This document shows positions 4,008 to 31,476 of a stretch of DNA of 35,346 bases, in pieces. The translations under genes were made by a program, and so were the position numbers. Position 1 is the first letter of the stretch; each line of letters opens with the position of its first letter. Source of the stretch: Phoronis australis (Eukaryota > Animalia > Phoronida); contig NMRA01001247.1 in NCBI GenBank assembly GCA_002633005.1, positions 1 through 35,346 on the forward strand. Direction: 5' to 3'. The notes below the pieces were generated by a model. That model did no database searches. It worked only from the letters and a program-made list of their open reading frames with translations, and had not been told where the DNA came from.

Positions 4008-4706
4008 TCAAAACTGTAGGAGGGCTTCCTCCATGCTATCAAAGTACTTTGAGTCAACAAGAAACTGACACAGTTTTGTGGTCGCTTTGACCCTAGTCTC
4101 ACCTGTAGCCACCACAGCTAGTACTGCGCAAAATTGGTGGGAATTTTCGAACATCATTTCTGCAATAGTTTTCGATTGTAAGTTTATCATTCTTACACCG
4201 CAACGTCTGGCATTCGACAACATATGACCATAAGCCGTATTCAGTCGCTCCCTGTCCCTGTGTACGTCAAAGTAATACCTAGCTGCGTGCATTCTGGGCT
4301 CAAACTTCACTTGTTCAGGATCAAGTTCAATGCCGCAGCCAAGCAGTGCATGCACAACCCGATTATCATAACCGTACACAGTCTTAACTAAATCATTCAC
4401 AGAGCCACAACCAGGACGAGCATTGATTTCAAGTAACTTTGGTACTGCGTCACCGTTCTTGCGGATGAATTCGACGTTGTAGACGCCTTGACGTAGGCCG
4501 ACGGCTAAGGAGCACTGATACGAGGCCTCAATTATCTCAGTACGCTCCTTGTCCGAATCACCACCTGGTGTAACCCAAGAAGTGCCCCAAAAGTACGGAA
4601 GTGGGGCGGGGCCCGCATGTCCAACTGAACCGCCGACAAGTCTCCCTTTTGACATCACCAAGTCCACTTCATATTTGATACCTTGCAGGAATTCCATTAC
4701 TATAAC
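4008..4706 (-). CDS. CARNS1-like: Copy A terminal exon (232 aa + TGA), catalytic ATP-grasp C-domain
   Basis: Acceptor ttctgtgctag|GTTATAGTAATG at 4707/4706; includes ORF 4008..4697 with MEFLQG, NVEF and EINARPG; TGA at 4010-4008. Confidence 0.93.
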   Translation of the reverse strand, partial: VIVMEFLQGIKYEVDLVMSKGRLVGGSVGHAGPAPLPYFWGTSWVTPGGDSDKERTEIIEASYQCSLAVGLRQGVYNVEFIRKNGDAVPKLLEINARPGCGSVNDLVKTVYGYDNRVVHALLGCGIELDPEQVKFEPRMHAARYYFDVHRDRERLNTAYGHMLSNARRCGVRMINLQSKTIAEMMFENSHQFCAVLAVVATGETRVKATTKLCQFLVDSKYFDSMEEALLQF

Positions 4707-7700
4707 CTAGCACAGAAATGATTCACTTTACTCGTACATCCTGGACGAAAACAAAATTGGAATTACGATTTATAAAGTTCTACTGGGAATCCCGTCAAGC
4801 AAAGAATGATTTCCAGAAATGATTCAATATATAGTCCGGGAGCCAGGGGGCTGAACCTGGATTTACTGGATAAAGTATATTTCTTTGCTGTTTCATGTAG
4901 CCTAGGGTTAAGTAACCATGATTTAGGTGGTGACCATTTGCAACCCTTGCGCATTTTTAAACATGCAAATTAAGGTCGCCATTATGCAAAATTCCTTTTT
5001 TGCTTGAAATTTCCTTACCAAGAATTGCAGGCGGATAACTTTGACGTTTTCACTTATGCAAATTAACCCCGCCAGTATTCATTTTTTTTTCTTTTGTTTA
5101 TAGCTACAGTACCAGGCACCACAGATGAACAATAATGATATTTTCACCTAATGTATATTCTGATGGTCAATTAGTTTCATTAAATCAGCTGGCATGTTGT
5201 TGCATCGTAAATGTTCATAATTAATGTAAATTTGCGTAATTCATGCAAATTAAGAGTGTCATTATTCAAAATTATACTTTTGCTTATAGCTGCGGTACCA
5301 AGCACCTCAGGTAAACTTTCATGATATTAGAGTCTATATTTCTATGGTCAATTAGGTTAATGAAATCAGTTTGCAAGATAAATTTCCATAATTTAGGCAA
5401 ATATAGGCGGTCATAGTTAAAAATTATGTTTCTGCTCTTAACTTTATAACGGAGGCCACTACATGTAGATTACTTTGATATTTTTTCTGATGAATTTAAT
5501 GAAATCTGTCATTACATTATCAATATAAGTATTTCGTAATTTATTACTAAACATTACAAATTCTAGTTTTGTGTGATACCCAGGGTAGCTCAAGTAGATG
5601 ACCAAATTGTTTAATTGCATAAACCCAGGACAATAATCTCTCGAAGGAGAACAATAACAAACTGTTTCAAATGCTAATTCAACCCTCAGAACGTGTGCAC
5701 ACTAGAGTATAACATGCCCGAAATATTGTGCGAAGTAGAAATTGACATTGCAACTGCATCTATTTGAATTTCATTGGATCTGACTTTTGAAGCCACACCT
5801 AATCATCACCAGTATGCAACAGGAGCGAGATGGACACCATGTGGAATTATAAATGGTGAGAGTGATTTGTTTATGGAATCTTTCTTCCATCCATAGTCCA
5901 GCTGGACCTAGTGCTGGTGACATTCCACCACATGGTCGACTAGTATTGGGCTTTGTTTACCTATACACTTTCTGTGAATGTTTCGGTTGTCGGTGACAGT
6001 TTGTGGGCGATCTTATATAACTTGCAGTTTTTCTTCGCCATACTAATAGTCTAGTTCCGGACATCTTTCTGCTTCTCTTCATTTCATAACAGGCACAAAT
6101 ACATTTAGTGGCCTGTTTTATGATTATCAATAGTGCCGATGACAGACAGGTCATGTCCAGCCTTCAATATTTTAACGATGGATCCAGTTTCAACTCCATA
6201 ATAGCATGCCACTGCGTTACAGCGCATGCCCAGGGAGGAGGCCTTTACAATATCATTGCATGTTTCCACTGTCAACTAAATGCCTACGATTGTATTATGC
6301 TTACTAGTTGACTTCATGGTTGTGATATTTGAAGCTGTTTCGTATCTTAGTAATGCACACGAAGTACAAATACAGTTTGATCACCCGAAGCAACCTAAAA
6401 TTTGTTAAGTTCACATGCACATTTCAAGTCCAGTTGCACAATAGTGGAGGAGGCTTCTTCATGGGATGTCTCCAGATAATGCCTGCTGCCAATGTCCTTG
6501 TACTGCATGTATGTTAAGGGTCAGGGATCTTCATCTATGATTAACTACTTGTGTTCCTTGCGTAGCAGAAGCAGTGTTTGAAATACCGGTGTCCTTTGTT
6601 TGTATAAATTATGCAAATTCATCGTGCAACAACTTGCAAACTGATTTCATTAAATTAATTTACCATATAAACATGTGCGAAGATGTTACCTGGAGTGCTT
6701 GGTACTTCAGATATAAGCAAATTAATAAAAATAGAATTTTGAATAATGTTGGCCTTAATTTGCATATATTAGGCAAATTCACCATGCATCCACTAGCAAA
6801 CGCGCTTCGCTAAGTTCATTAACCATGGAACCATAGTTAAAAACATTAAAGTTACCTGTCGGTAGTGCTTGGCTACATTAAAAATGCAAATTTTCATGCT
6901 CCAGATTGCAAACTGATTTCGTTAAACTAATTAACCATAGGAACATAGGTGGAAATACCATGATAATTCACCTGTGATGATTGGAACCATAGCTATTGGA
7001 ACAAGAACAATTTTGAATAATTGCGATCTTAATGTGCGTAAATTATGCAAATTGACAATGTATCCACCAAAAAATTGAACTATTAAATTCGTTGATCGTG
7101 GAAATATGGGTGAAAGCATCAAAATAACCTGCCTGTAGTGCTTAGTAAGGAAATTATGAGAAAATATAGAATTTTAGATAATGGCGGGCTTATTTTGCAT
7201 ATATAAAAGGTTGAGTAAGGTCACCCCCTATTCCAGATTACCTATGCCTAGGCTACGTAAATCAACAAAGAAAAAAAATATCCAGCAAATCCAGGTTAAG
7301 TAAAAAAGACACAGCATTTGGCTTCTGGATAATTACTAGTACATCCTGGACGAAAACAAAATTGAAATTACGGTTTATATAAAAAACTTAAATTACTTCT
7401 GGTTAGAGTATACCCATCAAGCAAAGAACGATTTCCAGACGCCAAACCTGACCACAGTCGTCAAGCGTGACCACTTCACCTGTTAATCCTAATAGAACGT
7501 TTTTAGAACACAGCATACTTTGTTTCTATTAACTGGTAGCTGTGAATGAACTTGTCAAGTACACTAAAACTAACGGTATTGTGTTACGTTGAACTTAACT
7601 GCAGAGTTGAAAATGTTTTTAAAAAACAAAGCTTACCGACTGAGAATACGCAATTTGTTCACATGTTGTGGTCCCACAAGCCATGCCGCTGGACAGTTCG

Positions 7701-10700
7701 TTGAAGAAATGTAATGAATCAGTTTTGTTGTACATAATCTTGCAGCCAACGGCTCCACTTCCGCAGGCGGGCTTCATGACTACGGGAAACGCTAGTTTGT
7801 CTAAAGCGGCTAGTAGCTCTTCTTTATTATTCACGGAGTAACTGGGCACACCGTACTGAAATATCATTACACAGGTCTTGATTGTAATTGGTGAATAGCA
7901 GTTTGTTTCACTACAACATTACTCGTAAAATAATGCAANTGAGAACATAGTGCTTACGTACTAGACTCCAGGAAGAGTAAAAATATTAGTGACATGGGCC
8001 CAGAAGTGCCAAATATCTTGAATGGGCAGTAAAAGACAATATTAACACGGACTTGCCGTAACCACCCGCCCCAATAGTCTATTGCAAAATCTCATATTAA
8101 AAAAATAACTCAAAACTCTGAAGTAGTAATTCTGCATAGTGCTTCGTCGATTGTTTAAATATACCTCTTACCTTTGCAGTTTGGGGATTATTAAGCACAT
8201 GTTCCTGAGTAGCGTCTTTCAAATAGGCCACCCTCTTGCTCTCGTAGCTATCCCCCGGAATACCAAGTTCTTCACATAGGTAAGCTCCGACCATACTTGA
8301 AAAGTCACCAAAGAAGCAGCCCGCGTTCACCTGGCGGTAGAAAGTATTAGCAGATCAATCACTTATGTCCTCTGTAAACCACGTTTTGGTGTTCTAAACA
8401 CCAGCTTTGTGCACGGTCTGATGTGAACTTAGGAAACAATCACATAACCGTTCGTATCCTTTGTTTAATCAAACTAAAATTGGTTATGTCACACTGCTAC
8501 ACTTCCTTGAAACTGAGACTGACACTAACATGTTGTCATTAGAGATTTTAAAATATGTTTTGTTTGAAGCAATAAAGGCCTGTCGCATATTTTCAATGGA
8601 AGAGAAATAAAATATATTGATTAGGGAACGATCAGTTTTAAGAGACCAAGTAATTGAAATTTTGTTTTTATGGAGAAAAAAGCGCGCTTGTTAAATTATT
8701 TGTTCTGCCTACATTTTATTCTCCCATTGAGATGTTTGAGGAACGTCTTGGGTTTGTGACGCTACCTTGTTTAATTTCAAAATTTGTTTAGGGAAACTTA
8801 AAAACAAGTGAGATGCTCTGATACGCCGTAACATATAACAATTTCGTAAAATGTAACAAATGTTACATTTTATGTTGCTAGGCCTCTCCTAAAATGTAAC
8901 AAGTTGTTATATTTTATGTAATTGTTACAATTTACGTCGAATGCACATGCGAGAAATGTAACCTTTTTACATTTTACGAAAGCCACGTCATATTTCATGA
9001 GTTTGCATGGTATTTGTGACACGGGGTAAAACCGTTGACACACTTAACGCCTTCTGTCTCGGATAGTGTGAATGAAATTCTATCAAATGTGCCAGGTCGA
9101 CTTGATAGATTTATCCCTATGCACTTTCCATGTTTTTAACATGAGTAGTTTAATGGTATAGTCCACACGAAAGGAGTTTTACAGGATCAAGTAACAAGTT
9201 TTTTATCGTTAAGGCGTCCTTGGAATCTTTTGTGGGCACTCATAAACCAACTGTGTATCCGACATTACAGAAAACACACTTCCCTTGGTTAGAAAAATAA
9301 TGACATCGTATTTGGCTAATATTTATCGTATTTTTTCGGGAACGAACGACAATAACAAAATTTCTCATAGAGAATTCAATTTCGGAAGCCAATTTGATAG
9401 AAAAAAAACAAGTTTTAGTTCACGATAGTTTATTTCGGTCACTGTTTTATTGCCTTGGAGTCATCGCTAATGCCGTAATTGCCCTGCTCCACACAAAAGG
9501 AGCAAAACCAAAGTTGCTGATGTCCATGGGTTTTGTCTACCACCTTAGTTACGAATGACACATTGTGATGGAAGGAAATAAGAGCACGTGTTTATTTGCC
9601 GGCAGGTTGAAAGGCTTTGCCAAACCAACAGCAAAATACCGCCTTTGAGCACAGCGAGCCAATAGTGTAAAAAGGGCGGCATAGTAACGTGTGTTGTTCA
9701 GCTTGAACGATGAAAGAAAGTTCCTATGATGTCTAACCTGCCTGAAATAGCGGTGGTAACAACAGATGGAACCGTGACGTGTATACGTAAAAATGGGATG
9801 CCCAGCTAGGGAAATAAAAAATATTTTGCACTCTGGAAGGACATAACCATTTTGCTCAAACCTGGTCAAGGTCGATAATGTAAAGGAACGATAGTCTAAA
9901 GAAGCTGACTGGACGTGAAGTCACGTGTCTCATGAGGAGCCACTCTTTGTGTTACAGCTCGCAGATAAGGGAATTTGGCATATTAATCCTTTGATGCATT
10001 GCATTAAGGTTATCTCCAACCTTATTTAGTGGCCTCCATTCTAACACGTGTATAAAAAACTAAGCTTTGGCAACTAGTAAAAGTATATATTTTCTGAAAG
10101 AACAAAGACTAGGAAATATAAATTTTCTTTTTGTATTGATGAGCCATTATTTTTTTACGTAAAAACCTTTTTTTAAAATCAAAATTTCATTTTAAGAAAG
10201 GTGCATTCACAGCAAAGTATCCCCTCGGTCGATTTTTAATGAAACCTTTTTAAGCGAAAACTTCACCAGTTACCTCAAAAATGGTGTTACGAATTTTCGA
10301 TTAGTCTGTTTGTTTGGTTTCTATGACAAGGTATTTTTGTAAAAAATTGAAGTTTTATTCGTCTTTGTCCCATTAAGCAAAAACTAGGCTTTTATGTGCG
10401 TTCGACGTGAAATGTAACAACTACGTAAAATGTAACAACTTGTTACATTTCAGGAGAGGCTTAGCAACATATACTGTAACAATGACGTAAAATGCAACAG
10501 TTGTTACATTTTACAGCGTAACTATGCTCTTCAATGGACGCAATTAATTTCACAAACGCATTGATGCGATCACTGTTGTCATAGGGTATGCTCAACTTTT
10601 AAAATAAATTGTTTACCACTGTTATGCAAAATCTCAAATGTAATGCTGAAGACATTAGTCATAATAGCGACAGAGCCATCGGTAATTTTACACATTTTTA

Positions 10701-11796
10701 CTATAAACAAAAAGGTCAAAAGGAATATGTATCAAAGCGGACCAAAATACGAACAAAGTGCAGTTCGTGGGAGTTAAAAGGTCTTGCAAATTGTTGGATG
10801 AACTTGACGTATTTATCGCGGGTTAGTCATAGCTCTTGAGGAATAGTTACTGTTAAAACACATTTATTGTCGGACCTTAACTATATTGTTCGTGATTTGC
10901 ACGTGTTCATTATCTCATTTTTAGTCCTAAAAGGGAAAGTTACTTTGATATTTCTCTTTTTCAACCACCTGATAATGCTGGCGCTGATTTCTTCCACCGG
11001 TCGGTCATCCTTCTTTTCGTGAATCAAACCTTCGTCGTTGTACTCGTCAATGATTCCTAAGAACTTCATCTTTGCACACCAGTAATTATTCTCTTCGTTT
11101 TTCGGTACCAAGACATACAATGATTTCAGTCCCATCTTCTTCAAAGTAACCCAGACAGAGTTACCGAGTTCGGTTTCGTTGGTAACAAGCATACGATTAC
11201 ACAAACAAAGGAGAGATTTTTCTGCGAGAGGCCCAGATGGCGTGTATTGTAAAGGTGAAATCCTAAAATGAAACAGTAAAAACAATTCAATAGCGTAAGC
11301 GACCATGATAGGAATAGACCCTGAAGTGTTCCTCCCATATGCTAGAGAGAAGGGGACGAGTGTTCAATTTATGGAGGAAAAAGAAAATTAGCTCTGATCG
11401 CTCTTCTTAAAATAGTCTTTGCTAGGGGCAATTCGCTTGGACAGAGGGCGGCATGTTTACATGGAGACCTCTAGATGGTGTCAGTTGGAATGAGCATCCT
11501 GAAAGCGCCATCACTTAAACAAACATTGTGTTGCATCATCCACTTTTACGTGTAATCTAAGTCCGAACTTGAGGATGGTTGAGCAAGTTGCCGCCGTTGA
11601 ACTGATATCAAAGAACTCTTACCAAACACAGCTTTAACAAATTGCAAATTCTATGGTAGAAATACATGTAGGTTTTTCTTTCAGTTTTCTGGGCGAGCCC
11701 TCTTGTTGTTGTTACAGTTTAAGCACGTGACAAATGGATCATTTCTAATAGTACAATGTAAGTGCTTGAACCAGGCAGATTCACTTACATATTCAT
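4008..11796 (-). CDS. CARNS1-like: Gene copy A: carnosine synthase 1-like / L-amino-acid-ligase-like single-domain ATP-grasp protein, ~467 aa, 5 coding exons (11796-11789, 11262-10944, 8330-8172, 7855-7637, 4706-4008)
   Basis: Exons join in frame through GT-AG introns (phases 2,0,0,0): MNM|ISPLQ...KRNIK|VNAGCFFGD...PQTAK|YGVPSY...PVVMKPACGSGAVGC...YSQS|VIVMEFLQG...GVYNVEF...LLEINARPG...LLQF*. ATP-grasp motifs (P-x-V-x-K-P, glycine loop, MEF, N-V-E, E-I-N-x-R) are collinear with the C-terminal half of vertebrate CARNS1 as recalled. Exon lengths match copy B exactly. Confidence 0.88.
4832..7338 (-). mobile_element. Internally deleted Academ (AcademX)-type DNA transposon in the last intron of copy A
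   Basis: Imperfect inverted arms of ~700 bp (~4832-5560 vs ~6600-7338; aacctggatttactggata vs tatccagcaaatccaggtt) built from ~150-180 bp subrepeats; left end TAG; the core carries a degraded XPG-like + Cys-rich coding remnant; absent from the corresponding intron of copy B. Confidence 0.72.
5700..6560 (-). pseudogene. Degraded XPG/PIN-like nuclease + Cys8 zinc-finger region of an Academ-type transposase
   Basis: Manual translation across stops and frameshifts: RHYLETSHEEASSTIVQ...VASGDQTVFVLRVHY...CNAVACYYGVETGSIVKILKAGH...KQATKCICACY...LSPTTETF...DYGWKKDSINKSLSP...MIRCGFKS...NRCSC. This follows the recalled HEEAD / DTDVFVL / GCD-x-V / LPPT / YGW / CGC...RCSC series. Confidence 0.72.
7637..7855 (-). 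CDS. CARNS1-like: Copy A exon 4 (73 codons), ATP-grasp lid with PVVMKP and GSGAVG loop
   Basis: Acceptor atatttcag|TAC, donor TCG|gtaagc; 219 nt, phase 0/0. Confidence 0.92.
8172..8330 (-). CDS. CARNS1-like: Copy A exon 3 (53 codons)
   Basis: Acceptor ctaccgccag|GTG, donor AAG|gtaaga; 159 nt; LCEELGIPG...AYLKDATQ resembles the ATP-grasp 'LCQELGLP...AKQKSLTQ' segment. Confidence 0.9.
8819..10523. mobile_element. Non-autonomous TIR DNA transposon with 6-bp TSD (TG-type end, possibly Ginger2-like) in intron 2 of copy A
   Basis: TIRs of ~130 bp (tgatacgccgtaacatataacaa... / ...ttgttacattttacagcgtaact) rich in aaaatgtaacaa units; ATGCTC duplicated at 8813-8818 and 10524-10529; copy B shows the empty site (gaggtactcttta, ~28962). 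Confidence 0.85.
10944..11262 (-). CDS. CARNS1-like: Copy A exon 2 (319 nt), N-terminal domain
   Basis: Acceptor tttcattttag|G ATT TCA, donor AAA|gtaact; same length as the copy B exon 29379-29697 with 11 aa differences. Confidence 0.88.
11789..11796 (-). CDS. CARNS1-like: Copy A first coding bases (ATG AAT AT|) at the 3' end of a mostly 5'-UTR exon
   Basis: Donor AT|gtaagt at 11789/11788, conserved in copy B; its phase 2 matches the single G at the start of the next exon; in-frame TAA upstream at ~11863-11865. Confidence 0.7.
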
Positions 11797-12122
11797 GATT
11801 AGATATCCGGTCAAAGCACCCAGTGGATAGTCAGTGATTTCCACGAGATTGTTATCCAGTGTTTATCGGTGAAATGAAATGAAGCAATAAAACAGCAGAT
11901 TAAATTAAGCCCGCATCGCCTTCATTGCAAGCTAATACACTGTAGGTAATGAACCATTTATGCAGCGAAAATGTATTTCGCTACGTATATGTTCATTCTA
12001 CTTTTTGCCTGATGATGAGACATGCAGTCTCGACATATAGCTTGTGCTTTAATTTGCTTGTTTGTTATGTCTCGGTGCTTTGCTATAATTGCTGCACACC
12101 TGAAGAAAAGACATTGCTTCGA

Positions 12123-12534
12123 CACTACCGGGGTTTTCCGTACATGACCCCACGGGCGTGTATTTGGAAAATAACAGATATTTGGATTAAGGTGACGAAA
12201 AGTCATAGCCTTGACTGATATGAAAATATCAGCAATTTTTTCCATAAAACTGTGTTTTTTTAATTTTAATTTTAAGTTAGTTAATACATAGTTTGCCAAC
12301 ATCTTGTTCGTTTTTATCGATGATAAATGCTCCACAAAACTGTATCTGTGGCTAAAAGTTGATTGGGTTTTTAAGAGGACATTTTCCGAATTAACGCCTT
12401 ACAATCTGGACACTTGAAACAAGAAGTTCTAACACCAAATAATTGCCCATGGGCGTTTATTGGGCATAATTTTCCAAATAAACACCCGTTGGAGTTTCAT
12501 TGGGAGAGCTTATCTACGGAAAATCCTGGTACGA
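12123..12534. mobile_element. MITE with CACTA-like left terminus
   Basis: cactaccggggttttccgta...acgggcgtgtatttggaaaata is inverted to ttttccaaataaacacccgt...tacggaaaatcctggta; TSD not resolved. Confidence 0.55.
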
Positions 12535-12572
12535 GGGTCTTAGTACCAAGGTTTCCAACAAAAAGTTTAGCC

Positions 12573-12577
<5 letters not shown>

Positions 12578-12611
<34 letters not shown>

Positions 12612-12674
12612 TGTGTGTATATATATATTTATATATATGTTTGACACACACACACACACACATCCATATACATA

Positions 12675-12734
<60 letters not shown>

Positions 12735-12791
12735 TGTGTGACATGTGACATACATATATATGTTTGACACACACACACGTATGTATATGGA

Positions 12792-12827
<36 letters not shown>

Positions 12828-12885
12828 TGTGTCTGTGTGACATACATGCATGTACATACATGCATACGTGCGTACGTACATACGC
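12578..12885. repeat. Compound (TG)n/(CA)n/(TA)n microsatellite with internal inverted segments
   Basis: Directly visible; produces the spurious HT/CV-repeat ORFs. Confidence 0.97.
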
Positions 12886-12955
12886 AGGCTTCCTGTCTTC
12901 TATGAGCCTGGTGAGTATGAGGTTTGTTCCTGAGTCTCTCATTGATTTCTGTCAT

Positions 12956-13174
12956 ATGCAAAGGCTGGGAGCCGACTTTATGAATAGAGATGCAACCTAC
13001 TTGTGCAAGTAGGCCTACTGCACGTTATGCGCTCGTTACTTCGAGGAGTCCATGTTCACGAAAAACAAGCTGGTATGGAATGCAGCACCAACAATATTTG
13101 ATGCCCCAAATCCACCAAAAACGAAGATGTCAAAAAGTTCTCCGGAAATTATGTATATTACGGCTCTGGAATAG
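12956..13174 (+). pseudogene. Degraded THAP domain (C-terminal half), DNA-transposon-type (THAP12/PRKRIR-like)
   Basis: One frame reads GADFMNRDATYLCK*AYCTLCARYFEESMFTKNKLVWNAAPTIFDAPNPPK, i.e. LC-x2-(H>Y)-FE plus an AVPTIF-like box; one stop and loss of the zinc-binding His. Confidence 0.75.
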
Positions 13175-16704: not shown

Positions 16705-16774
16705 CAAGTTTGTCACAGTTATACCAACAATGTCAAATATAGTTCTACAAATATTGCTGCTCTCTACTTCAACA

Positions 16775-19700
16775 CAGTACACTCTGGGTTGGGCCTTGCA
16801 GAAACCCCCGAAAATGTCAACCACCTTACAATGTATAGGGCCATTGGACATTTGAGCTGGATTAGATATGCTACGTGCCAGTTAAAACTAATATAAAACG
16901 AACGATAGTACCGCACCTAACACCGAATGGCCCATGACAGGCAAATTCTACTCTTTAAAGGGTCCGCTAGAAACACAAAAAGACCCTCAAAATGAGCGAG
17001 CTCATGCATTCGAGGTACCACAGAAACAATTCCATGTGAGTCACTAACTACTCAATACCCCCATGGCAGATAAAATACACTCTGACGTGTAGATGACCGA
17101 AATCCCCAAAACCTCAACAACGGTATGCCATTGAAATTTTGAGCTACATTAGATATTTGAGGTACCACAATAAACACTACCATATGATTCAAATAGAAGT
17201 TACTGGTTATTGAATGACCTGTGACAGACAAAGCCATCCTGGGTTGTGCGTGCCAGCCCCAGAAATCGCAACCACATACATGTAATTCTGTTGAAGTGTG
17301 TCATATGTTAATTGGATAATGAAAATCCCGTTTAAATCTTGGTAGAGTTTTTTGGTAGAGTTTTGTAGAATTAAGAATTTCTATAAGGAGGTGTGATCAC
17401 GTGTTTAGTTTGCAGCTCATGGAGAATTCTTGTATTTCCGTAATACTCCCGCGTGTACTGAATTCTCTCCTTGCCTAAAACTAATAATATAAGTTTTACA
17501 CTGACTGCCAAATGGATGGTGGCAAAAAGTAAGCATTTTGGAAAATACCTGATAACACTAAAACTTTGGGATACTAAGAACTGTCAATAAAACAACCCAT
17601 TAAGGGATGATTAAGACTGCAGCTACTGTAGCATTTTGGGTTATGGAAACGGGCAGCAGGTAAATCAAACATACTTCAGCGACACCACATGACCCCTTAA
17701 TTTACGTTAGATCGAGGAACCATGAAATTTTTTCCAAGAAGTCCTTCCATTGCATTTCCTACTAAACAATGTTTTAAAGAAATGCAGCAAACGTGTTTTT
17801 AAAGTCTTATTTAATCACAATAAATAGTCATCAAAGCACTTTCAAACAGCAACAATCACAATAACATCCGTGTCACAGGCTCTGATTAATGCATTGCCAT
17901 TTGAATTGGCTAAGTGGAAGGTTAGAACATGTCGACCTATTCATAGGAAACTTGAGAATCTGCTAGATGATCAGCTGCCATGGTACCGTTATAAGAAATG
18001 CGAATACAGTTGCCGCCATGTGAAACAATAAGTGTTTTATCCAGAAGAAATAGTCCATACAATGCATAGGTCTTTCTGCCATTCTTGTTGGAAGAAAGTT
18101 GCAAAACCGTCGTTAAATTGTCCCGTTCTGCATACCAGGAGTGTTTCAACAAGACACTTCTGGGTGTTAAATTCATGTTACGTTGTTTTACGGACAGAAG
18201 TTACATTTTTCCTAAATGAAAACTTCAGATCCTAAAAACAGTTGTGTTTATGTAACGTTGTTATTTTGTACTATTAACCTATAGCAACTGTTGTCGGTAG
18301 TAACTGACTAGCCGCTGAAATAAGATAATTAAGTTTTTCGTTTTTTTTTTAACCCCGTTGAGTACTTCATGTTGCTGACAGCGCATTGTGTACTTGCCAA
18401 TTGTCCCGCTCTTTGCGGACTGTCTGGTTTTCAATCTTTCCGCCATTCCGCCTCCCCATTTAATTGTCTCACTTTTTGACGCACGGCTAAATTGACACAC
18501 TATCATATTCTATTGTACACTGTAAATACTCTCGCAACATAGCCATATTTTTCCGCTCGACTTAAATGAAAAACGGGGCAGTTTCTAAGGCTCATTATGC
18601 TTTGCTGCAGTCTTAATCATCACTAAATGTGTTGTTTTGACAGTTTCTGGTATCCCATTAGTATTATTAGGTATTTTATAAAACGTTTACTTTCCACAAT
18701 CATCCATTTTGGCACTCAGTTTGACGCTGTTATTAATGTTAAGCAAGTTGAGAGCTCAGAGACCCGAACGTATTACGGTAATATATGAATTCGCTATGAA
18801 CAGCAAACAATGCGCGTGACCACAAGACCTTCCTTATGAAAATTCTTGATTATACGAAACTCTACCAAGACTTAATCGGGATCTTCATTGTCTAATTTAT
18901 CACAGTTTCAACAGAATTACATGTACGTGGATGAGCTTTCTGGGGCTGGCACGCACAACTCATAGTGGGCTTTGTCTTCCACAGGCCATTAACTAACCAG
19001 TAACTTCTATATGAATCACATAGAGTTGTTTATAGTGGTATCTCGAAAGTATGAGCTATCTCCTTTTGGGCGTCGTTTTTGAATTTATGTCGGACCCTTT
19101 CCAGAGAACGTTTTGTCTGTCATGTGCTATTCGGTGTGTATTGCGGCACGATTGTTGATTATTTAAATCTGATTTTGTAATCAGTTTTAGACGGTACCTC
19201 AAATATCTAGTGTAGCTCAAATTTTCAATGGCCTACCATGGTTGAGTGAGATTTTTTTGGATTTCTGGAGGGCACAACCCAAAGTGTATTTTGTCTCATA
19301 GGACATTCCTGACCGGTGACAGATTTTCATTCACATGGAATTTGTTTTTGTGGTACCTCGGATGTAGGAGCTAGATCATTTTGGGGGACATTTTTGGTTT
19401 CTAGCGGACCCTTTCCATAGCAAACTTTGTCTGGCATGGGTCATTTGTGGTCCAGTATTGTAGTACAGTTCGTTTTAAATCAGTTTTAGCTGGTACCTCG
19501 AATATTTTAACTAGCTCAAATTTTCAATGGCAAACCGTGGTTGACATTTTTGGGGTTTCTAACGGGCACAACCCAGAGTGTATTTTGTCTGTCATGGCGC
19601 ATTTAGTGAACAGTGACATGTATTGAAACACATGGAATTGGTCTTTTGTGGTACTTCGAATGTATGAGCTAGATCACTTTTCAATGGGGGGTCTCATTTT

Positions 19701-19985
19701 GGTTTGTGGCGGACCCTTTCCAAAGAGCAGTTTGTCTGTCATGGGTCATTTGGTGTTCAGTGTGGTACTATTGTTTGTTTTAAATCAGTTTTAGCTGGTA
19801 CCTCGAATATTTAATCCGGCAGCTCAAAGTTTGAATGTCATACGGTGGTTGACATTTTTGGGGTATCTAGCGGCCAAAACCCAGAGTGTACTTTGTCTGT
19901 AATGGGGCATTCAGTGATCAGTGACATAAAGTGAATCGTGTGTATTTTCGGGTACCTCGAATGTATGAGCTTTTACCTATACGAT
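16775..19985. mobile_element. Foldback-type element: long inverted arms (~16775-17655 and ~18575-19985) carrying ~300-bp tandem subrepeats around a ~0.9-kb spacer
   Basis: gttgtgcgtgccagccccagaaa (~17243) vs tttctggggctggcacgcacaac (~18937); gatgattaagactgcagc vs gctgcagtcttaatcatc; repeat units restart at ~19178, ~19478 and ~19783 (aatcagttttag..ggtacctc). Confidence 0.8.
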
Positions 19986-21453: not shown

Positions 21454-21609
21454 CAGTGGCGGATTTAGAGGGGGACAAGGGGGTCATGGCCCCTTTAAAA
21501 TTCTCCCAGATTCCATTTGGCAGTTCGGGGCTGCAAATGCCTGACAAGCAAAATTCTGGCTAGTACTCTGCCCTGGCCCCCCTAACTCAAAATCCTGTAT
21601 CCGCCCCTG
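21454..21609. mobile_element. hAT-like MITE (copy 2), nested
   Basis: Same TIRs and body as 15908-16064; absent from the duplicate segment near 23960. Confidence 0.8.
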
Positions 21610-22329: not shown

Positions 22330-23428
22330 ACATATTTTGAATCAAACGTTTGCCCAAATCCTGCCCGCCTCCAAACAAGGACTTAGTGTTTGACCCTTCA
22401 TTGCCTGCGGGCCAATCACCAGTGTGCAGTGCTATACCCTCTCTAATCGACCATAGTTGGCTCCTTGGCGGTGGAGCTTTGTAGTTAAAATGTATGGCAA
22501 TGCCTGCATCTCCATTGACAGTACTAAACGATGAACACTGCAAGTGCAAAAAGAACATCTGTGCTGGGAAACTGAGTTTGTGCTGCAATGCTGGGTCAAA
22601 CTGTACAGATATGTGCAGCTGTGACAACTGTAGTAACGTACATCAGCAACACTGACTGCATAACACTGGATAGTTCTTTGACAAGTCAACCCTAAATAGA
22701 CCTCCAACCTCGTTATTTCGTTTTTTGTATTAAAAAGTTAATTTTATTTGTTGATTAAGTCATAGAAAGTACATACTCTGATTATTGTCATGTATTTGTC
22801 TCATACTGCTTGATGAACGCTGTTAGAATAATCTATTATTTTCATACAGTTTGCACATTCACAGAGATCATTCCAGTATATTATTTTTGTACTATAATGT
22901 ATTTCTGGTGTATTATGCAAACAAGCTGTATTTTACACCATTAGTCAATGTTTTAGTCATTGAGGCACACATTTTGCCCAGTCTCAAGTGTTTTGTTTTA
23001 TTTTTGTTGCAAGACAATGCCAGAATAACTTCCTAGTAACATCCAGACTTAGTTTGTATTTTTGCCACTAGGTGTCTCTTTACATTTTTTAAATTTCACT
23101 GTTTACAATTAATCTACAATAGTAAAACATGTAATGTGAGTGTAATATTGTTCAATACAATGGCACTGATGGGACCATATTACTTGTTTTACAAAAAAGT
23201 CACCAAAACTGTTGTTTTTACAAATATAAGTTTACTAAGCTCTTTGGTGATTATTAGGTAACTTCAAACTCAAATTTCTCAAAAATGTGCAACTTTATAT
23301 GTGGGAACTTTTTAGATTTTGAAAACACTCTAATAAATGAACTAAAAAACACCAAAATAAAATTGCCCCCCTAAAGTACTCACAAAAACCATTTTCTAGA
23401 GGCCCTACAAAATCTGGCCCACCGACTA
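22330..23428 (+). mobile_element. 3'-terminal fragment of a second Academ-type transposon (Cys8/CXC finger + right end)
   Basis: PPPNKD / LTLHCLRANHQCAV / IPSLIDHSWLL...PASPLTVLNDEHCKCKKNICAGKLSLCCNAGSNCTDMCSCDNCSN (22360-22655); the fragment ends ...gcccaccgaCTA, matching TAG...CTA termini, just before an N. Confidence 0.7.
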
Positions 23429-23630
23429 CNATTCTTTAGACCTGTATTAAGTCGTTAACCAGCTTTAACTTAAGACTTGGTCAGACCCAGGTTTAACTGT
23501 TATTTATGACAGACTTGAATGATTTTGGTGCAACTGAATGATGCCGCCGTGTGCAATTACGACGCAGTTTTAGAGCCAAAATGCACTAATTTCAATATTC
23601 AGTTTTACGGTGACACAAGATCAAACGTAG

Positions 23631-23783
23631 CAGGGACGGATTCACAATTTTAAGGGGGGGGGTTGGTCATTTATTTTTTAAAGGGGGGACTAAGTCAACA
23701 ATTTGAAAATTGTAGATTTGATATCATTAAAATAAAGGGGGAAAGGGAGTCCGGACCCCTTAACCCCCTTGGATCCGCCTATG
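23631..23783. mobile_element. Small hAT-like MITE, present in both internal duplicates (other copy ~21115-21268)
   Basis: cagggacggattc...ggatccgcctatg termini; shared body acaatttgaaaatt.tagat.tgatatca.taaaat.aaggg. Confidence 0.55.
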
Positions 23784-25514
23784 TGTATACCCGTACATGT
23801 ACGTGCTAGATGGTGTCCTGCGTATTCCTCAGAATACGACTGGTCGATCAGGGCGTCGCCGTTGACGTAAGTGCTACGTCTTTGACTGAAGACAGCGTCT
23901 TCTGATTCTTCTGAGTTCCACCTCCATTGGTCTCCAATTCAATCTTGCCGGGAAGGGGTCTTGCCCCTCCCCCTTTGGCCGCGAAAAATAAACACTAAAA
24001 TGGCACGGAAATAAATTTGGACATTTATCATGTTGCGGCTAATCGTGAGCATGTACTTTATTGTGTGTATACGTGTGTTGAGCACAGACATTACATTTTT
24101 CCTCTTGCTTTTAGACCTTATTCGCAAATATCTGCACTGATTCTACGAGTGTGTATGTGCCATTGAGTACTCACGTGATCAAGGTTTCATTGAAGCACTT
24201 CAATAGTTTCTTTGTTGGGTTAATCCAGATCGACACAGCACGGTTGCTTAGTTACTTTAAACATGGTTTTACTAAACCGGCTCTCTGGTCTAACAAAATC
24301 AGGCTTTCAGAGATTTAAACCACGTTGGTGAAATGCAAGTTATAGGTCCAAAATTAGACCTGGCTTAGGAAGACCAGGTTTACAATGTAAGTCTTAAACC
24401 TGATTTTTGTTAAACCACCTTTATAAAATCAGCTGTAAGTGCTCCTATATGGTCAGGTACTGGAAAACCCATACTCCCACCCACACATTGTACGTGTACA
24501 CGTTAGACTATACGACGAACAGAGTTAAAGGCCAATGCATCCGGGTTAAGTCAAAGCGGAGGATAACGCATACTTGTATGAAGATAAATCGATAGATGTA
24601 CCATTGTTTCGTGAATGAATTGAAAGCTTCAAATTTAATTATAAGGGCCTCAAGGATTTATAGTCTGTGTACACTGTACATCTCGTTCAAAATAGGGAGT
24701 GCTCGACATGTTATCAAATATATCTATTGTTTTGAATTTGAATATGAATTGGACCTAATCGCACCAGAATAATAAGACATTAATAAAATAAATGTTCAAT
24801 TTGTTTTTCATGAGGGATGCTCAATATAGCGACTTCATTTATTGAGATTGCAACGTGTGTGAACTGCTGTCAATAGTCCGTGACGTATGCTAGCTGTTGA
24901 CACCTCAGCTATGTAGCGATCCTATAACCTTAACTTTATTCAATCTCAGAAAGCATCAAATGGTAATACCAGAAATAAACCCTTTGTTCCACAAAACATT
25001 AGAAATGACACAACGCAGGATCAAGTAAGCCAATACAGAAAGATTGGTCAAAATTCAGGATGACGGGTGCGGACATCTTAAATTATAGAAAATACAGTTT
25101 GTTCTTCTAACCACATATAATAAATTTCTAAGGAATACTATGCCGTAAACAACATTTTGTTATCAACTTTTTGCAGTATTATAGCTAGGCCTACGTCATA
25201 ATCGATTGGCTTCATGTGTTTATAATAGGAAGATATTTAATCAGCATAGTCGAGGAGTCTACAAGATCGCATAATTTACATTCAGTGTATCACACTATCC
25301 CTGTAAACGTTTACACGTTTCAGTATTCCCTGTCACCATTTCTTATTCATGTAAACCGACTGTCACACTGTATTAATTTAATGATTAAAGTTAAAAGAAT
25401 AACCGAGGCCGAGAGAACTGATCCATCACCGAGTATTTTAAACACCTAGATCCCTTATGGCCATACTGGGGTCTGCCTACCAGGAAAATATTTATAATCT
25501 GGGAAAATGTTCTT

Positions 25515-26213
25515 TCAAAACTGTTGCAGGGCTTCCTCCATGCTATCAAAGTACTTTGAATCAACGAGAAACCGACACAGTTTTGTGGTCGCTTTGGCCC
25601 TAGTCTCACCGGAAGTCACCACTGCTAGTACTGCGCAAAATTGGTGGGAATTTTCGAACATCAATTCTGCAATCGTTTTCGATTCTAAGTTTACCATTCT
25701 GACACCGTAATTTCTGGCATTCGACAACATATGACCATAAGCCGTATTCAGTCGCTCCCTGTCCCTGTGTACGTCAAAGTAATACCTAACTGCGTGCATT
25801 CTGGGCTCAAACTTCACTTGTTCAGGATCAAGTTCAATGCCGCAGCCAAGCAGTGCGTGTACAACCCGATTATCATAACCGTACACTGTCTTAACTAAAT
25901 CATTCACAGAGCCACAACCAGGACGAGGGTTGATTTCTAGTAACTTTGGTACTGCGTCACTGTTCTTGCGGATGAATTCGACGTTGTAGACGCCTTGATG
26001 GAGGCCCAGGGCTAGGGAGCACTGATACGAAGCCTCAATTAGGTCTGCACGTTCCTTGTCCGAATCACCACCTGGTGTAACGTAAGAAGTGTCCCAAAAG
26101 TACGGAAGAGGGGCGGCGCCTCTTTGTCCAACTGATCCGCCGACGAGTCTCCCTTTCGACATCACCAATTCGACTTCATATTTGATACCTTGCAGGTATT
26201 CCATTACAATTAC
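25515..26213 (-). CDS. CARNS1-like: Copy B terminal exon (232 aa + TGA)
   Basis: Acceptor ttctgcgctag|GTAATTGTAATG; includes ORF 25515..26204 with EINPRPG. Confidence 0.93.
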   Translation of the reverse strand, partial: VIVMEYLQGIKYEVELVMSKGRLVGGSVGQRGAAPLPYFWDTSYVTPGGDSDKERADLIEASYQCSLALGLHQGVYNVEFIRKNSDAVPKLLEINPRPGCGSVNDLVKTVYGYDNRVVHALLGCGIELDPEQVKFEPRMHAVRYYFDVHRDRERLNTAYGHMLSNARNYGVRMVNLESKTIAELMFENSHQFCAVLAVVTSGETRAKATTKLCRFLVDSKYFDSMEEALQQF

Positions 26214-29200
26214 CTAGCGCAGAAATGATTCACTGTACTCGTACATACTGGACGAAATCCAAAATGGCATAAGATTTACAAAAAAATAAAATTACTTAAT
26301 AAAGTCTACCCGTGATGCAAAGAATAATTCCCAGTCCTCAAGAGTGACCACTTCACCTGTTTATCCTAATACAAGAGCAACACGGAGCGTCGAAATGCAC
26401 CCACGAATGCCCAACAAACCGTTTGCTTCTAGGGTTGTTTATTTGTATCATAAATATGGCCAATAGATGGCGCAAATTAAGTAGAATCTATCCGAAATCG
26501 GGAACATGCCATTGTTTCTTAAATAGATAGCTAACTGACAAATTTCACAATAATCTGTAAAGAGACTTAGAGAAACAAAGGAAAAATGAAAAAATGAAAT
26601 TACCACTAAGTGGCACAGCGTTGGTCGGATCCGTCTGAAAGTCGTCGTCGTCTGTTGTTAAATCCAAATAAATGCACTTACTAAATTCAAAAAGATTCTG
26701 TAGTGGGTTTAGGAGATTCAGGTATTAGGGAAAAACAAAACAAAACTACCACAAGAAGTCGCCACAGTAGTAGAATTGGCCAACGACAACCGTCCTCTTC
26801 ACACTGAGAACACATACGCCAATTCTCAAAATCATCTTTATAATAGTTTGGTTGATAAAGGGGCAGGCGCCAAAACAGACACGAAAACAGCAAAAATGGT
26901 CACTAGGGGCGCAAAATACCTCAAACCAACCGAAAACGAAAGGATATCGCTGTCTCACTAATAGATGTCTATAGTCCAAATTTTATGGAAATCCGTTAAC
27001 CGTCAAAGATACAGAAGTAAACGTAAAAAACTAAAATTGCCACTAGGAAGCGTGCCGGTAGTCAGATCTGTCCGAAAGTCGTCGTCTTCCGTTGTCAACT
27101 TCATGTGAATACACATGCTAAATTTAGTAAGTGTCGTGCTGAGGGTTTAGGAGATACAGACATGGCAGCAAAACAAAACTATACTGCCACTATAAGGCGC
27201 TACAGTACTCGAAGTCGTCGGAAAATCATCGTTATAGTAAAAACATCGGTTTGGTTGATAGAGGGGTGGACGCCAAAAAACACTCTCGAAAACAGTAAAA
27301 ATGGCCACTAGTTGGCGCAAAATACCTCCAATCCATCCGAAAACGGAAAGATAGCGTCACCTTACTAATAGCTGCGTATATGCCAATTTTTATGAAATTC
27401 GTTGAGGACCTTTGAAGATACAGAGGTATTACGTAAAAATTAAAATTGCCACTAAGGGGCACACCGGTAGTCGGACCCGTCCGAAAGGTCGCTCATGCCG
27501 TCCCATCCTTGAAAGGAACACGTGCAAAATTTCATGAACACATGTCAAAAGTTTTTGGAGATGTAGCAGCGGATGCCGGCGCCGGGCGGACGCCGTACGG
27601 ACGCCGGACGAACATGAACGATGGCCCAATGCGTCCTCATATAAATATGTGGACGCTTAATAAGGATCTGTGAAAACAACATAACCTGTTCTATTAATTG
27701 GTAGTTGTGAATTAACTGCTCAAGTACAGTAAAACTAACGGTATAGTGTTACAATGAACTTAACTGCAGAGCTGAAACTGTTTTTAAACATCAACAAAGC
27801 TTACCGACTGAGAATATGCAATTTTTTCACATGTTGCGGTGCCACACGCCATGCCGCTGGACAGTTCGTTGAAGAAATGTAATGAATCAGTTTTGTTGTA
27901 CATAATCTTGCAGCCAACGGCTCCACTTCCGCAGGCGGGCTTCATGACTACGGGAAACGCTAGTTTGTCTAAAGCGGCTAGTAGCTCTTCTTTATTATTC
28001 ACGGAGTAACTGGGCACACCGTACTGAAATATCATTACACAGGTCTTGATTGTAATTGGTGAATAGCAGTTTGTTTCACTACAACATTACTCGTAAAATA
28101 ATGCAAGGTAATATTTAACCCCCCCTCCTCCCCCCAACAGGCATTCCACAATGATGCTTCCTAAGCTCGTAACGGTGTAATGGTGGAATGAGATCCTAGT
28201 GCACACATACATACTGAAGAATGCAAATATTAGTGATATAGGCCTAAAAGTGCCAAATATCTTGAATGTGCAGTAAATACTAACATGGAAGTGCCGTAAC
28301 AACCCGTCCCGAAAGACTATGGCAAAACCGATTTTTATAAAAAATACTCAAAACTCTACTGTAGTTCCGTATTGTGCTTCGTCGATTCTTTAACAAAATC
28401 TCTCACCTTTGCAGCTTGGGGATTTTTAAGCACATAATGTTGAGTAACGTCTTTCAAATAAGCCAGCCTCTTGCTCTCGTAGCTATCCCCAGGAATGTCA
28501 AGTTTTTCACACAGGTAAGCCCCGACCATACTTGAGAAGTCACCAAAGAAGCAGCCCGCGTTCACCTAGCGGTAGAAAGCATTAGCAGATTAGCCATTTA
28601 TGTCCTCTGCAAACCACGTTCTGGCTTTCTGCACGGTCACATAACGTTCGCATCCTTTGTTTAATCAATTAAAATTGGTTTTAACACACCGTTATACTCC
28701 CTTGAAACTGAGACTGAAACTAACAGTTCTTTAGAAATTTAATAGATTTTGTCTAAATCAATAAAGACCTGTCGCTTATTCTCAACGCAAGACAAATTAA
28801 ATAATGCGAGTACGGAACGATCATTTTTGAGTGACCAGGTAACTGAAAATTTTGTTTATAGACAGTGAAAGGAGCGTTTCTTACATTATTTGTTCTGCTA
28901 GATTTTATTCATCAATTGAAATTTAATTTCAAAATATGTTTCGGGTAACTAAGAAACAATTGAGGTACTCTTTAATGGATTCAGTTAATTTAAGATCCAA
29001 ACAAACCTATTGATGCCATCATTGTTGCCACAGGATATGTTCAACTTTTAAAATACACGTACAGTGTATAATACATTGCGCATGGCACTAAAATGTTAAC
29101 CATTGTAAGGCAAGATATCAACTGTAATGCTAAAGATAATAGTTATAGTAGCTTCTGAGCCAACAACAATATAACATATTTTTGCTACGAACAAAAAGGT

Positions 29201-31476
29201 CAAAAAGAATATGTATCAAAGCGGACCAAGATGCGGAGAGCATACAGTTCATGAGAGTTAAAATGTCTTGCAAATTAATTTATTGCATGAACTGGACATA
29301 TTTATTCCCGGTCCTTAACAATACTGCTAATAATTTACACCAGTTAATGTAATTTTTGGTCCTTAAAGGGATAGTTACTTTGATATTTCTCTTTTCCAAC
29401 CACTTGATAATGCTGGCGCTGATTTCTTCCACCGGTCGGTCATCCTCCTTCTCGTGAATCAAACCTTCGTCGTTGTACTCGTCAATGATTCCTAAGAATT
29501 TCATCTTTGCACACCAGTAACTATTCACTTCGTTTTTCGGTACCAAGACACATAATGATTTCAGTCCCATCTTCTTTAAAGTTACCCATACAGAGTTAGT
29601 CAGCTCGGTTTCGTTGGTAACAAGCATACGATTACATATACAAAGAAGAGATTTTTCTGCGAGAGGCCCATGTGGCGTGTATTCTACAGGTGAAATCCTA
29701 AAATGAAACAGAACCAATAATTAAAGGAAAATACGACCCAAAAACAGCCTAGATCGAGTAGTTCCAATCGATAACAGCAAGTACAACTCTAGTACCTGAC
29801 ACAAGAAGGCAGACGGAGGTGTTGAAATTAACCAATAACGTCAGAGGTTCGAACACAGTCTGTTCAGCAGTTCACAACACGCCTACTGGTCAGCTTTTAG
29901 CCCTCCATGAATTCATCGTTTTACACCAATAAATCATCAAAATTCGATGTAAAACCCTTACAAGTACATCGAGATCATAGCTGTGTGTTGTAATTTTAGA
30001 CTTGGCAGTTTTTTCAGTTCTAAACACACAAAACGTTTGTTATCCCGGCCAGTGGCTCGGAACCCAAGTCAGGCCCATCGCGACCGGACTGAAGGCATCA
30101 CGAACATAAACCAGCCAAAGTTGGAAACTAAACTTCCAGGCACAAAAAGTCTATACTAGTGAGCCAAAGAAATAATGATCACGTGATTGTTTTGGTGAAT
30201 TAGCCGCTAAAATGAAAATCTACTTACTAGCTCGTCGTGGGCCGCAAAGTCATAGGTTACCCTTACTGAGAGCCGTCAGGGTAAAAGTTGTACAGTAACA
30301 ATAATTCGAATAATGTATAATTCATGATTATATAAATAAAGATTCCCCTGACATCTGACAATAGGAGATAAAATTGCCCGGTCAATTAGCTTATTGCATT
30401 TAAAGCCAGTAACGCAGTGATTTATTCATTGCTGGCTTCTCAAAACATTTGCACTCACGAACACTCCAAGGCAAAACAAGTTGTATCTAATGAGACAGAC
30501 TTTGTTTCAATTTTATATAAGTATTGGTTGGCGAGAGAAACTGGTAGCACAATAATAAAAGTCAACGTGCCAATATGCAATTCCGACTTAGACGAGTGCT
30601 CATTCGACGAAGACTTCACATGTTGATCGTTAGGTTTCACAGGTTATCAGTTCAAACCGGAATGCACTGATCAAGAAATACTAGAGGTCCATGAACGTGC
30701 ACAGGCTACGGAACATTTGTATAGTTTCCGAAAACCGCTTGACTGACTTGTCATGTTGTCACGATAATGGAAACGACTGACGCTTGCGTTTGCTGCCACG
30801 AAATTCCGCAAGTGAAACGCCTTCTTGGAGCAAATCAGATGTGTCTCACGGACTGTCTTGGCTTTGCATCGCATCTAAACAGAGGTAGGCTTACGACGTT
30901 CGGCTGAGAAAAAGAACTGGCGAAAACACCCTACACCCAGAGGTTCAAACAGAAGTCTGACGAATGAGTCAGTCATCAAACAGGTTATTTAAAACGTTAT
31001 GATGTCACCCCTTGAATAAATTGTAATTGTTCATGTTTTAATGGCCAACTACAATTCTCCATAATCAAAAACCAATCAACAGCTGATCCGCGTTTCTTTG
31101 CCTCCTGCCTGTCGAACGCAAATACACTAGGCACAACATCTGACTTAAGCCTTAGTCTCTGTTTCCATGCGCGCACCCAGCCTTCAATATGGGGGACCTT
31201 TTGGTAACAAAAAAGCGGGCGGACTAAAAAAAATATAAAAACGAGAGCATCTCTGTGAATTGCGCGTTTGCGCATGTTTAATCGATTTATTCCTCATTTT
31301 CTCGGACCTTTTGTCTCTCTGAGGCGGACCTTTTTGCCCACTTCGCCAAATGGGGGCCAAATAACTCTTAGCAAAAACAGCTTTATGAAATTGCAAATTC
31401 TATCGAATCAGACTTCTCTGCGAGCCTTCGTTTTGTTGTTGTTACAGTTTGAGCACCCAGGCAGATCTACTTACAT
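25515..31476 (-). CDS. CARNS1-like: Gene copy B: carnosine synthase 1-like / L-amino-acid-ligase-like single-domain ATP-grasp protein, ~465 aa, 5 coding exons (31476-31475, 29697-29379, 28565-28407, 28023-27805, 26213-25515)
   Basis: Same exon lengths (319/159/219/699) and phases as copy A, all GT-AG, no internal stops; motifs PVVMKPACGSGAVG, MEYLQG, NVEF, EINPRPG; 46 differences in 464 aligned aa versus copy A by manual count. Confidence 0.88.
26371..27661 (+). mobile_element. Helentron/HINE (DINE-1-like) non-autonomous element with internal higher-order tandem repeat, in the last intron of copy B
   Basis: Absent in copy A (empty site cctaatagaacg, ~7488); starts acaagagc, then ~140-bp monomers grouped in ~410-440-bp units, a (cggacg) microsatellite-like tract and a 3' stem-loop gcgtcctcatataaatatgtggacgc (27631-27656). 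Confidence 0.7.
27805..28023 (-). CDS. CARNS1-like: Copy B exon 4 (73 codons)
   Basis: Acceptor atatttcag|TAC, donor TCG|gtaagc; 219 nt. Confidence 0.92.
28407..28565 (-). CDS. CARNS1-like: Copy B exon 3 (53 codons)
   Basis: Acceptor ctaccgctag|GTG, donor AAG|gtgaga; 159 nt. Confidence 0.9.
29379..29697 (-). CDS. CARNS1-like: Copy B exon 2 (319 nt)
   Basis: Acceptor tttcattttag|G ATT TCA, donor AAA|gtaact. Confidence 0.88.
30560..30900 (+). pseudogene. Degraded P2X7 C-terminal (ballast/nanor-like) Zn-coordinating Cys domain
   Basis: SDLDECSFDEDFTC*SLGFTGYQFKPECTDQEILE... then a frameshift to METTDACVCCHEIPQVKRLLGANQMCLTDCLGFASHLNRGRL, matching the recalled YxFEP...MxTxxECxCCxE...CITxHxGF...LN pattern. 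Confidence 0.7.
31075..31170 (-). pseudogene. THAP C-terminal box remnant
   Basis: KQRLRLKSDVVPSVFAFDRQEAKKRGSA resembles RLKxDAVPTIF followed by a basic tail; no zinc ligands visible upstream. Confidence 0.5.

Follow-up and report, generated by a model that had tools for sequence, protein, structure and literature searches.

The 35,346-nucleotide contig NMRA01001247.1 of Phoronis australis (assembly GCA_002633005.1), referred to below as the window, contains two minus-strand genes in tandem, copy A (11790-4008) and copy B (31476-25515), that resemble half of the gene for carnosine synthase (CARNS1, or ATPGD1; EC 6.3.2.11). Carnosine synthase is the textbook animal example of an ATP-grasp enzyme that couples two free amino acids. 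We consider it reasonably probable, from sequence, that the pair represents stand-alone, 465-residue offshoots of the CARNS1 C-terminal unit, each a cytosolic ATP-dependent amide ligase with a product likely to be other than carnosine. An active cytosolic ligase is strongly expected and, provided that it is active, a product other than carnosine appears quite likely.

Both genes have five exons. The coding parts are located at 11790-11789, 11262-10944, 8330-8172, 7855-7637, and 4706-4008 in copy A, and at 31476-31475, 29697-29379, 28565-28407, 28023-27805, and 26213-25515 in copy B, where 4008 is exactly the stop of copy A and 31476 the start of copy B. All introns are of the GT-AG type and their phases agree; support for the exon 3-4 and 4-5 joints comes from splice signals, phase, and homology. 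The coding sequence is 1398 nucleotides in either copy and encodes 465 residues without an internal stop. In both copies intron 1 interrupts the start codon (AT|G), a split that was confirmed by RNA reads, and in-frame stops are found upstream at 11865-11863 (TAA, copy A) and 31500-31498 (TAG, copy B). The preliminary description of this DNA, which had reported intact spliced frames each preceded by such a stop, was thus correct, its 467 residues for copy A corresponding to an alternative in-frame ATG (11796) two codons earlier.

The RNA data comprised three raw runs from one study of the same species (X6, X7, and X8), of which about 18-19% each was read, and one contig set (X5). The exon bins of copy B were covered almost only in the mate direction expected of minus-strand RNA. 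Stranded depth at 25407-26144 was 26 and 18 in X8, 10 and 7 in X7, and 4 and 4 in X6, while the intron bin 28728-29096 had a depth of 0 in all runs. On copy A, exon 2 had a depth of 22-33 in X8 and 11280-11779 a depth of 0. The intron 1 joint (526 bases skipped, CT..AC ends) was present in 15 X8 reads with 10 different starts and in 2 X6 reads, with none seen in X7, and 7 further X8 reads ended in exon 1 letters. All 24 reads crossing the 5' edge of exon 2 (22 from X8 and 2 from X6) lead to exon 1; among the loose ends listed exon 2 had no other 5' partner, and none of the 24 reads joined it to an upstream coding exon. The loose ends of the intron 1 joint reads match exon 1 of copy B, and the letter of the in-frame TAG of copy B was carried by all of these reads (15/15 in X8 and 2/2 in X6). 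In the mRNA this stop lies 8 codons before the split ATG. Because the reads both confirm the split start codon and carry the upstream in-frame stop of copy B, the expressed protein stands alone, which bears out for the copy B type the single-unit protein that had been proposed. A cryptic acceptor skipping the stop was considered and rejected, as 15 X8 reads continue through the TAG. The joint between exons 2 and 3 was represented by loose ends in 26 X8 reads, 9 X6 reads, and one X5 contig.

The letters that distinguish the copies were found mixed in the RNA. Seventeen of the 20 exon 2 variants listed on copy A were B-like and all nine exon 3 variants listed on copy B were A-like, while several variants belonged to neither copy; the expressed allele is therefore a B-like mosaic. 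The 3' untranslated region of copy B (25000-25514, minus strand, end approximate) had stranded depth, polyadenylation-type hexamers at 25382, 25241, and 24940, and an X5 contig at 25175-25421 that is B-type (5 differences in 240 nucleotides and a 7-nucleotide gap). We infer that the expressed copy is B, or a B-like allele. An A-type exon 1 was carried by none of the 17 joint reads, depth was 0 in 11830-11879, and none of the 301 reads placed on the 5' region of copy A was 99% alike. In about 15-25% of the exon 2 reads from X8 there is a stretch of A letters (at 11142-11237), which may stem from copy A or from a second allele. The earlier view that both copies work was accordingly not sustained, the A-type first exon being absent from the RNA reads.

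Comparison of the window with itself placed the duplicated unit at 3431-11901, matching 24932-31592, with unrelated flanks and with non-coding DNA that outside exon 4 is about 69-89% identical and holds different insertions. The two proteins share 419 of 465 residues. Non-synonymous divergence (dN) was 0.051 and synonymous divergence (dS) 0.156, giving a dN/dS of 0.33 (Fisher p 8e-8), and the differences fall 28/19/51 on the three codon positions. With a dN/dS of 0.2-0.35 in each of exons 2-5 and no frameshift or stop, both frames are under purifying selection. The stretch around exon 4 (7506-7938 versus 27672-28106) was found to be 94% identical with its intron flanks included, and dS is 0.06 in exon 4 as opposed to 0.16-0.23 elsewhere, so this is likely a gene-conversion tract. 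Clustering of amino-acid differences between the copies in the omega loop was dismissed as a signal (4 of 15, p 0.05), since 70% of shuffles gave 5 in some 15-residue window.

These features bear on whether copy A is functional. The duplicated unit stops about 35 nucleotides upstream of exon 1, and the counterpart of exon 1 in copy A (11789-11866, minus strand, with the split ATG at 11790-11789) has no acceptor AG before it, the CAG of copy B being CCG. No polyadenylation hexamer was found within 1.2 kb of the copy A stop. Together with the lack of A-type reads and the conversion tract over exon 4, this would fit a situation where only B works and A is a promoter-less duplicate kept intact-looking by its recent origin and by gene conversion. 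Set against it are the low dN/dS of exons 2-5 at a dS of 0.16, the minority of X8 reads with A letters in exon 2, and the scope of the RNA comparison, which covered copy B and the 5' part of copy A in unspecified tissues and stages. We consider a dead copy A rather unlikely, and it would be compatible with the favored explanation for copy B. The mixed letters could also mean that the tandem arrangement arose in assembly from two haplotypes of a single locus. This is very improbable, since the copies sit in unrelated flanking DNA, dS is 0.16, and most of the non-coding blocks they share, which hold different insertions, reach only about 69-89% identity.

Descent of the pair from CARNS1 is most likely. 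Pfam matches on single exons were obtained for ATPgrasp_Ter (29.9 bits, cut-off 29.1) and CPSase_L_D2 (24.8 bits, cut-off 19.8), the latter with E 1.8e-5 on exon 4 of copy A; membership of the ATP-grasp carboxylate-amine ligases is thus indicated by profile, and by fold for exon 5 only. A HMMER search with exon 5 of copy B among 1.84 billion representatives gave 285 hits to E 0.001, 43 to 1e-10, and none to 1e-30, and the best identity among the 150 matches listed was 41%; therefore no close relative is on record. A word-index search with the same exon among proteins of 407-2000 residues, which is a weak search, gave none among 2203 candidates. Thirty hits were looked up; for 20 of them the cluster gave a name or an organism, and these were CARNS1 or CARNS1-like proteins of bats, fishes, octopus, bivalves, gastropods, and a nemertean, as well as two-unit proteins of Ancyromonas and Petalomonas (P0082 and P0048). 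The latter suggest that the two-unit architecture is older than animals. With blastp 29 of the top 30 hits were in the CARNS1 clade.

In a fast tree of 125 rows, from which units under 330 residues were left out, the pair was placed inside the CARNS1 clade with a support of 99 and a branch of 1.75, and in a mixture-model tree of 44 rows it was again inside (99/94) with a branch of 2.5. Neither tree gave the pair a resolved sister. Profiles made from 25 sequences each scored the full proteins at 211-223 bits for CARNS1, 157-167 for sequences like the bacterial L-amino-acid ligases (Lal), and 143-151 for others, which puts CARNS1 about 45-65 bits above the bacterial profile. CARNS1 profiles came first in the N-terminal, middle, and C-terminal regions in three of three subsamples, while the full order was the same in the full length and the middle. 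The match to the CARNS1 C-terminal unit that the preliminary description had noticed is upheld by these results, whereas a special kinship with bacterial Lal on the strength of the BacD-like strings that it listed is not supported, as the CARNS1 profiles score higher in every region.

An origin by horizontal transfer, either of a bacterial L-amino-acid ligase or of a bacterial single-unit CARNS1 relative that gained introns later, was weighed against these placements. Forcing the pair together with five bacterial Lal-like rows cost 7.3 log-likelihood units, and the approximately unbiased test did not reach rejection (p 0.181); the bacterial side of the tree consists of Lal-like rows rather than the characterized Lal enzymes. 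The neighbors of the pair in an ESM feature search were bacterial clusters where taxa are recorded, although that search (Atlas) covers only clusters of at least 50 members. The branch has no resolution within the clade, and some single-unit clade members may be bacterial. Given the 99/94 placement with CARNS1 and the profile results in all three regions, such a transfer is improbable.

CARNS1 proteins have two units, and a profile of 27 CARNS1 N-terminal halves detected nothing in the six frames of the window (best E 0.28), with the limit that the true exon 2 likewise escaped a C-half profile (E 15-16), so that equally diverged N-half exons could be overlooked. Exon 1 of copy B (31475-31556, minus strand) is 82 nucleotides long and mostly untranslated, and it ends with the AT of the start codon. 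Given the pyrimidine tract and CAG before it, it may be an internal exon of the 5' untranslated region. The idea that exon 1 is a leftover coding exon from the CARNS1 linker was rejected: by hand count about 6 of 12 differences between A and B are at third positions, which is not significant, and the N-half profile has no match there.

The proteins retain the catalytic core. All nine core positions (K145, K188, E238, N310, E312, E326, N328, R330, and G332) and the P-loop are kept in both copies. In copy B, exon 2 encodes residues 1-107 with the N-terminal domain (hhalign probability 92.8, and RNA depth), where a longer loop stands in place of the glycine-rich first loop. Exon 3, whose RNA reads have mostly A-type letters, encodes residues 108-160 including K145, the first ATP lysine. 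Exon 4 (residues 161-233) contributes K188 and the P-loop, and exon 5 (residues 234-465) contributes E238, the omega loop (262-276), E312, E326, N328, R330, the C-terminal domain, and the stop. Exon 5 of copy A likewise includes the stop codon. No hydrophobic stretch was found, the maximal 19-residue hydropathy being 1.22. The predicted model of exon 5 had a pLDDT (predicted local distance difference test) of 91, and its best fold match was the L-amino-acid ligase 3VOT (E 2e-10, template modeling score 0.68). Work on RhiC and RhiM (PMC13579937) assigns Mg binding to the two corresponding glutamates and carboxylate binding to the arginine, mutation of which abolishes activity, and has the donor pocket shaped by the omega loop. 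An acyl-phosphate mechanism is described in PMC9486568, and in PMC6920838 Trp332 of BacD, in the loop matching that after R330, is given as a specificity site.

The positions particular to carnosine synthase are largely lost. In rule-based sets the pair keeps 25 of 32 universal positions and 7 of 17 CARNS1-specific positions; the latter is the lowest value in the clade, whose 45 other members keep 10-17, while the median is 1 in 61 outgroup rows. The D at 263, kept in 32 of 33 two-unit and 21 of 21 single-unit relatives, is His or Gln in the pair. The E at 274, which matches the Glu of the BacD F-T-E-T motif that we take to bind the donor amino group, is G in copy A and D in copy B. The loop after R330 is P-G-C-G-S as opposed to M-G-G-F-Y in the clade, so that G333, present in 31 of 33 two-unit proteins, is a Cys. 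In a set of 13 pocket sites one is kept. Single-unit relatives as compared to two-unit relatives had no general pocket erosion (p 0.14). Because the acids of the acyl-donor pocket are lost and the loop after R330 is changed, the substrates are probably not beta-alanine and histidine. Hence the intact ATP-grasp set that had been described is confirmed by nine of nine core positions, while the accompanying claim of a product that is probably not carnosine is judged likely from the altered pocket and the 7 of 17 positions.

The pair may nevertheless be half-size but ordinary carnosine or imidazole-dipeptide synthases, with the C-terminal unit alone making beta-alanyl dipeptides. All of their closest named relatives are CARNS1, 12-13 of the 13 pocket sites persist in 8 of 21 single-unit relatives, and in a clam a CARNS1-like gene has been tied to carnosine content, by correlation only (PMC11591149). 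With the D at 263 gone and fewer CARNS1-specific positions than in any of the 45 clade members, we regard ordinary carnosine synthesis as unlikely. The open pocket (G334 and S335), the replaced first loop, and G333C could instead point to an acceptor that is no small molecule, such as a protein or peptide tail, or to a catalytically weakened ATP binder. As the fold and profile matches are small-molecule ligases and the complete core is under purifying selection, either would be a very unlikely outcome.

Several points weigh against a stand-alone ligase with a new product. The set of 13 pocket sites was picked after the alignment had been viewed, and the position of the omega loop was derived from its offset to the conserved Glu and from profile alignments with BacD and BL00235. 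A branch of 2.5 changes per site would be expected to lose family residues in any case, so the loss does not by itself prove a new substrate; long-branch divergence alone could be behind part of it. G333C and the lost glycine-rich first loop could reduce activity. CARNS1 has itself been described as promiscuous in PMC6920838. The RNA comes from one study with three runs, about 19% of each being read, and from one contig set, and letters of both copies are mixed within the expressed alleles. The unreached rejection in the approximately unbiased test counts on the same side.

Half-size forms had been thought special to this lineage, a view not supported in light of gene models of 416-458 residues in several bivalves and a nemertean. 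The clade comprised 78 rows, of which 33 were two-unit, 21 single-unit (Met start, 405 or more residues, and no more than 70 of them ahead of the first strand), and 24 set aside as fragments. Named single-unit models were found in Mytilus (429-458 residues in several species, in clusters of 4, 6, and 13; CAC5388968.1 and XP_063448436.1), Pecten (443 and 450), Ylistrum (450; XP_060082534.1), Mizuhopecten (453; XP_021366737.1), Ruditapes (416; XP_060575027.1), and Tubulanus (436; XP_074644000.1). Single-unit CARNS1-like models thus recur across bivalves. The models are gene predictions and some may be fragments; at least those of Mytilus and the scallops are probably real, as their lengths recur. 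In the tree they are spread over several positions next to two-unit proteins, a pattern suggestive of repeated truncation. The 436-residue protein of Tubulanus shares a 90% cluster with one of 895 residues, possibly reflecting a recent truncation or a split model. A separate well-supported clade (P0080, P0099, P0062, and P0070) has 441-455-residue single-unit proteins with 12-13 of 13 CARNS1 pocket sites kept; these are candidates for minimal, possibly microbial, carnosine synthases. No description of half-size animal CARNS1 paralogues was found in the literature, most subscription papers being out of reach. The clam enzyme without an ATPgrasp_N domain (PMC11591149) is a Pfam call rather than a report of a half-size protein.

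Compared to the CARNS1 C-terminal unit the pair has about 28-33% identity over 270-350 residues (bat KAM8814944.1, Octopus XP_029646820.1, and Amia XP_066579534.1). Its domains are arranged in the same order between the first strand and the C-terminus, the core residues for ATP and metal and the Arg are all present, and it falls in the same clade. Unlike CARNS1, it is without the N-terminal half of about 500 residues, its glycine-rich first loop, omega-loop acids, and M-G-G-F-Y loop are replaced, and its branch is 2.5. It shares the half-size layout with the bivalve and nemertean models, some of which (Mytilus 455 and Mizuhopecten 453) also have a heavily changed pocket (3 of 13), but it is not their sister in the tree. 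With the bacterial Lal enzymes BL00235 (3VOT), BacD/YwfE (3VMM), RizA/RhiM (4WD3), and RhiC it shares a single unit of 410-475 residues and the same predicted chemistry, and Lal enzymes are the best PDB matches by sequence (E 1e-4), family profile, and fold. BL00235 and BacD were the best in the PDB, and no CARNS1 chain was among the 60 of 101 PDB matches listed. The differences from Lal are an identity of 17-19% in the fold match, no LAL_C2 Pfam hit, profile scores lower than for CARNS1, and a spliced eukaryotic gene. In BacD terms the F-T-E-T Glu is G or D in the pair, so that copy A no longer has the omega-loop acid and copy B has a shorter one. The pair thus appears to resemble an L-amino-acid ligase in size and chemistry; probable descent connects it with carnosine synthase, while its 465 residues instead of two units (about 800-1050 residues) and its lost family-specific residues would place it outside that enzyme.

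No other gene was found in the window, and the biosynthetic locus and the L-amino-acid dipeptide specificity proposed in the preliminary description are putative. Rfam gave no match there, and the 27 other open reading frames had no Pfam match at cut-off. The preliminary description had the DNA between the genes as transposon debris without further exons; the N-half profile recognized none, while the debris is only partly shown, by the lack of Pfam matches and one sub-threshold CXC fragment. That fragment, a degenerate frame at 22341-22652 (plus strand) ending in a CXC/TCR cysteine cluster (E 6.6e-4, below cut-off), is probably transposon-derived. A broken frame beside a (TG)n microsatellite at 12872-13171 (plus strand) has no THAP match in Pfam; by eye it presumably resembles the end of a THAP domain. 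A 305-base-pair tandem repeat family occupies 16772-17623 and 18604-19971 in a large inverted arrangement, possibly a foldback-type element. A short palindromic element occurs twice in opposite orientations in intron 2 of copy A (8819-8997 and 10394-10514) and again upstream of copy B (34754-34948). Within the last intron of copy B, 26450-27660 holds a repeat with a period of about 400 base pairs. Hundreds of RNA reads match it at 90-95% likeness, with almost all of them running the same way; this family is transcribed from other places in the genome. A G+C-rich degenerate tandem repeat of about 55 base pairs (31680-32040), with almost no RNA depth, sits between exon 1 of copy B and the assembly gap at 32640-33034.

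By analogy with Lal enzymology, Mg-ATP would be held by the two lysines and E312/E326, and R330 would position a carboxylate for conversion to an acyl phosphate, which an amine would attack to give the amide, ADP, and Pi. An amino-acid-like donor would more plausibly suit B, which has D274, than A, which has G274. A two-unit CARNS1 ancestor would have lost its N-terminal half and diverged fast, and tandem duplication with patchy gene conversion would have followed.

The chemistry is already known and half-size models are common in databases. Tentatively, we propose that animals may carry an unrecognized class of stand-alone, ribosome-independent amide ligases, repeatedly cut from carnosine synthase and mis-annotated as 'carnosine synthase 1-like', and that the expressed Phoronis pair, with the most remodeled pocket in the clade, may make a new small peptide or amide, the donor specificities of A and B having begun to differ. 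A natural, expressed, half-size version allows one to ask directly whether the C-terminal unit can work when the N-terminal half is missing. If the product is new, the pair would represent an overlooked invertebrate route to small peptides under a misleading annotation, and a possible biocatalyst.

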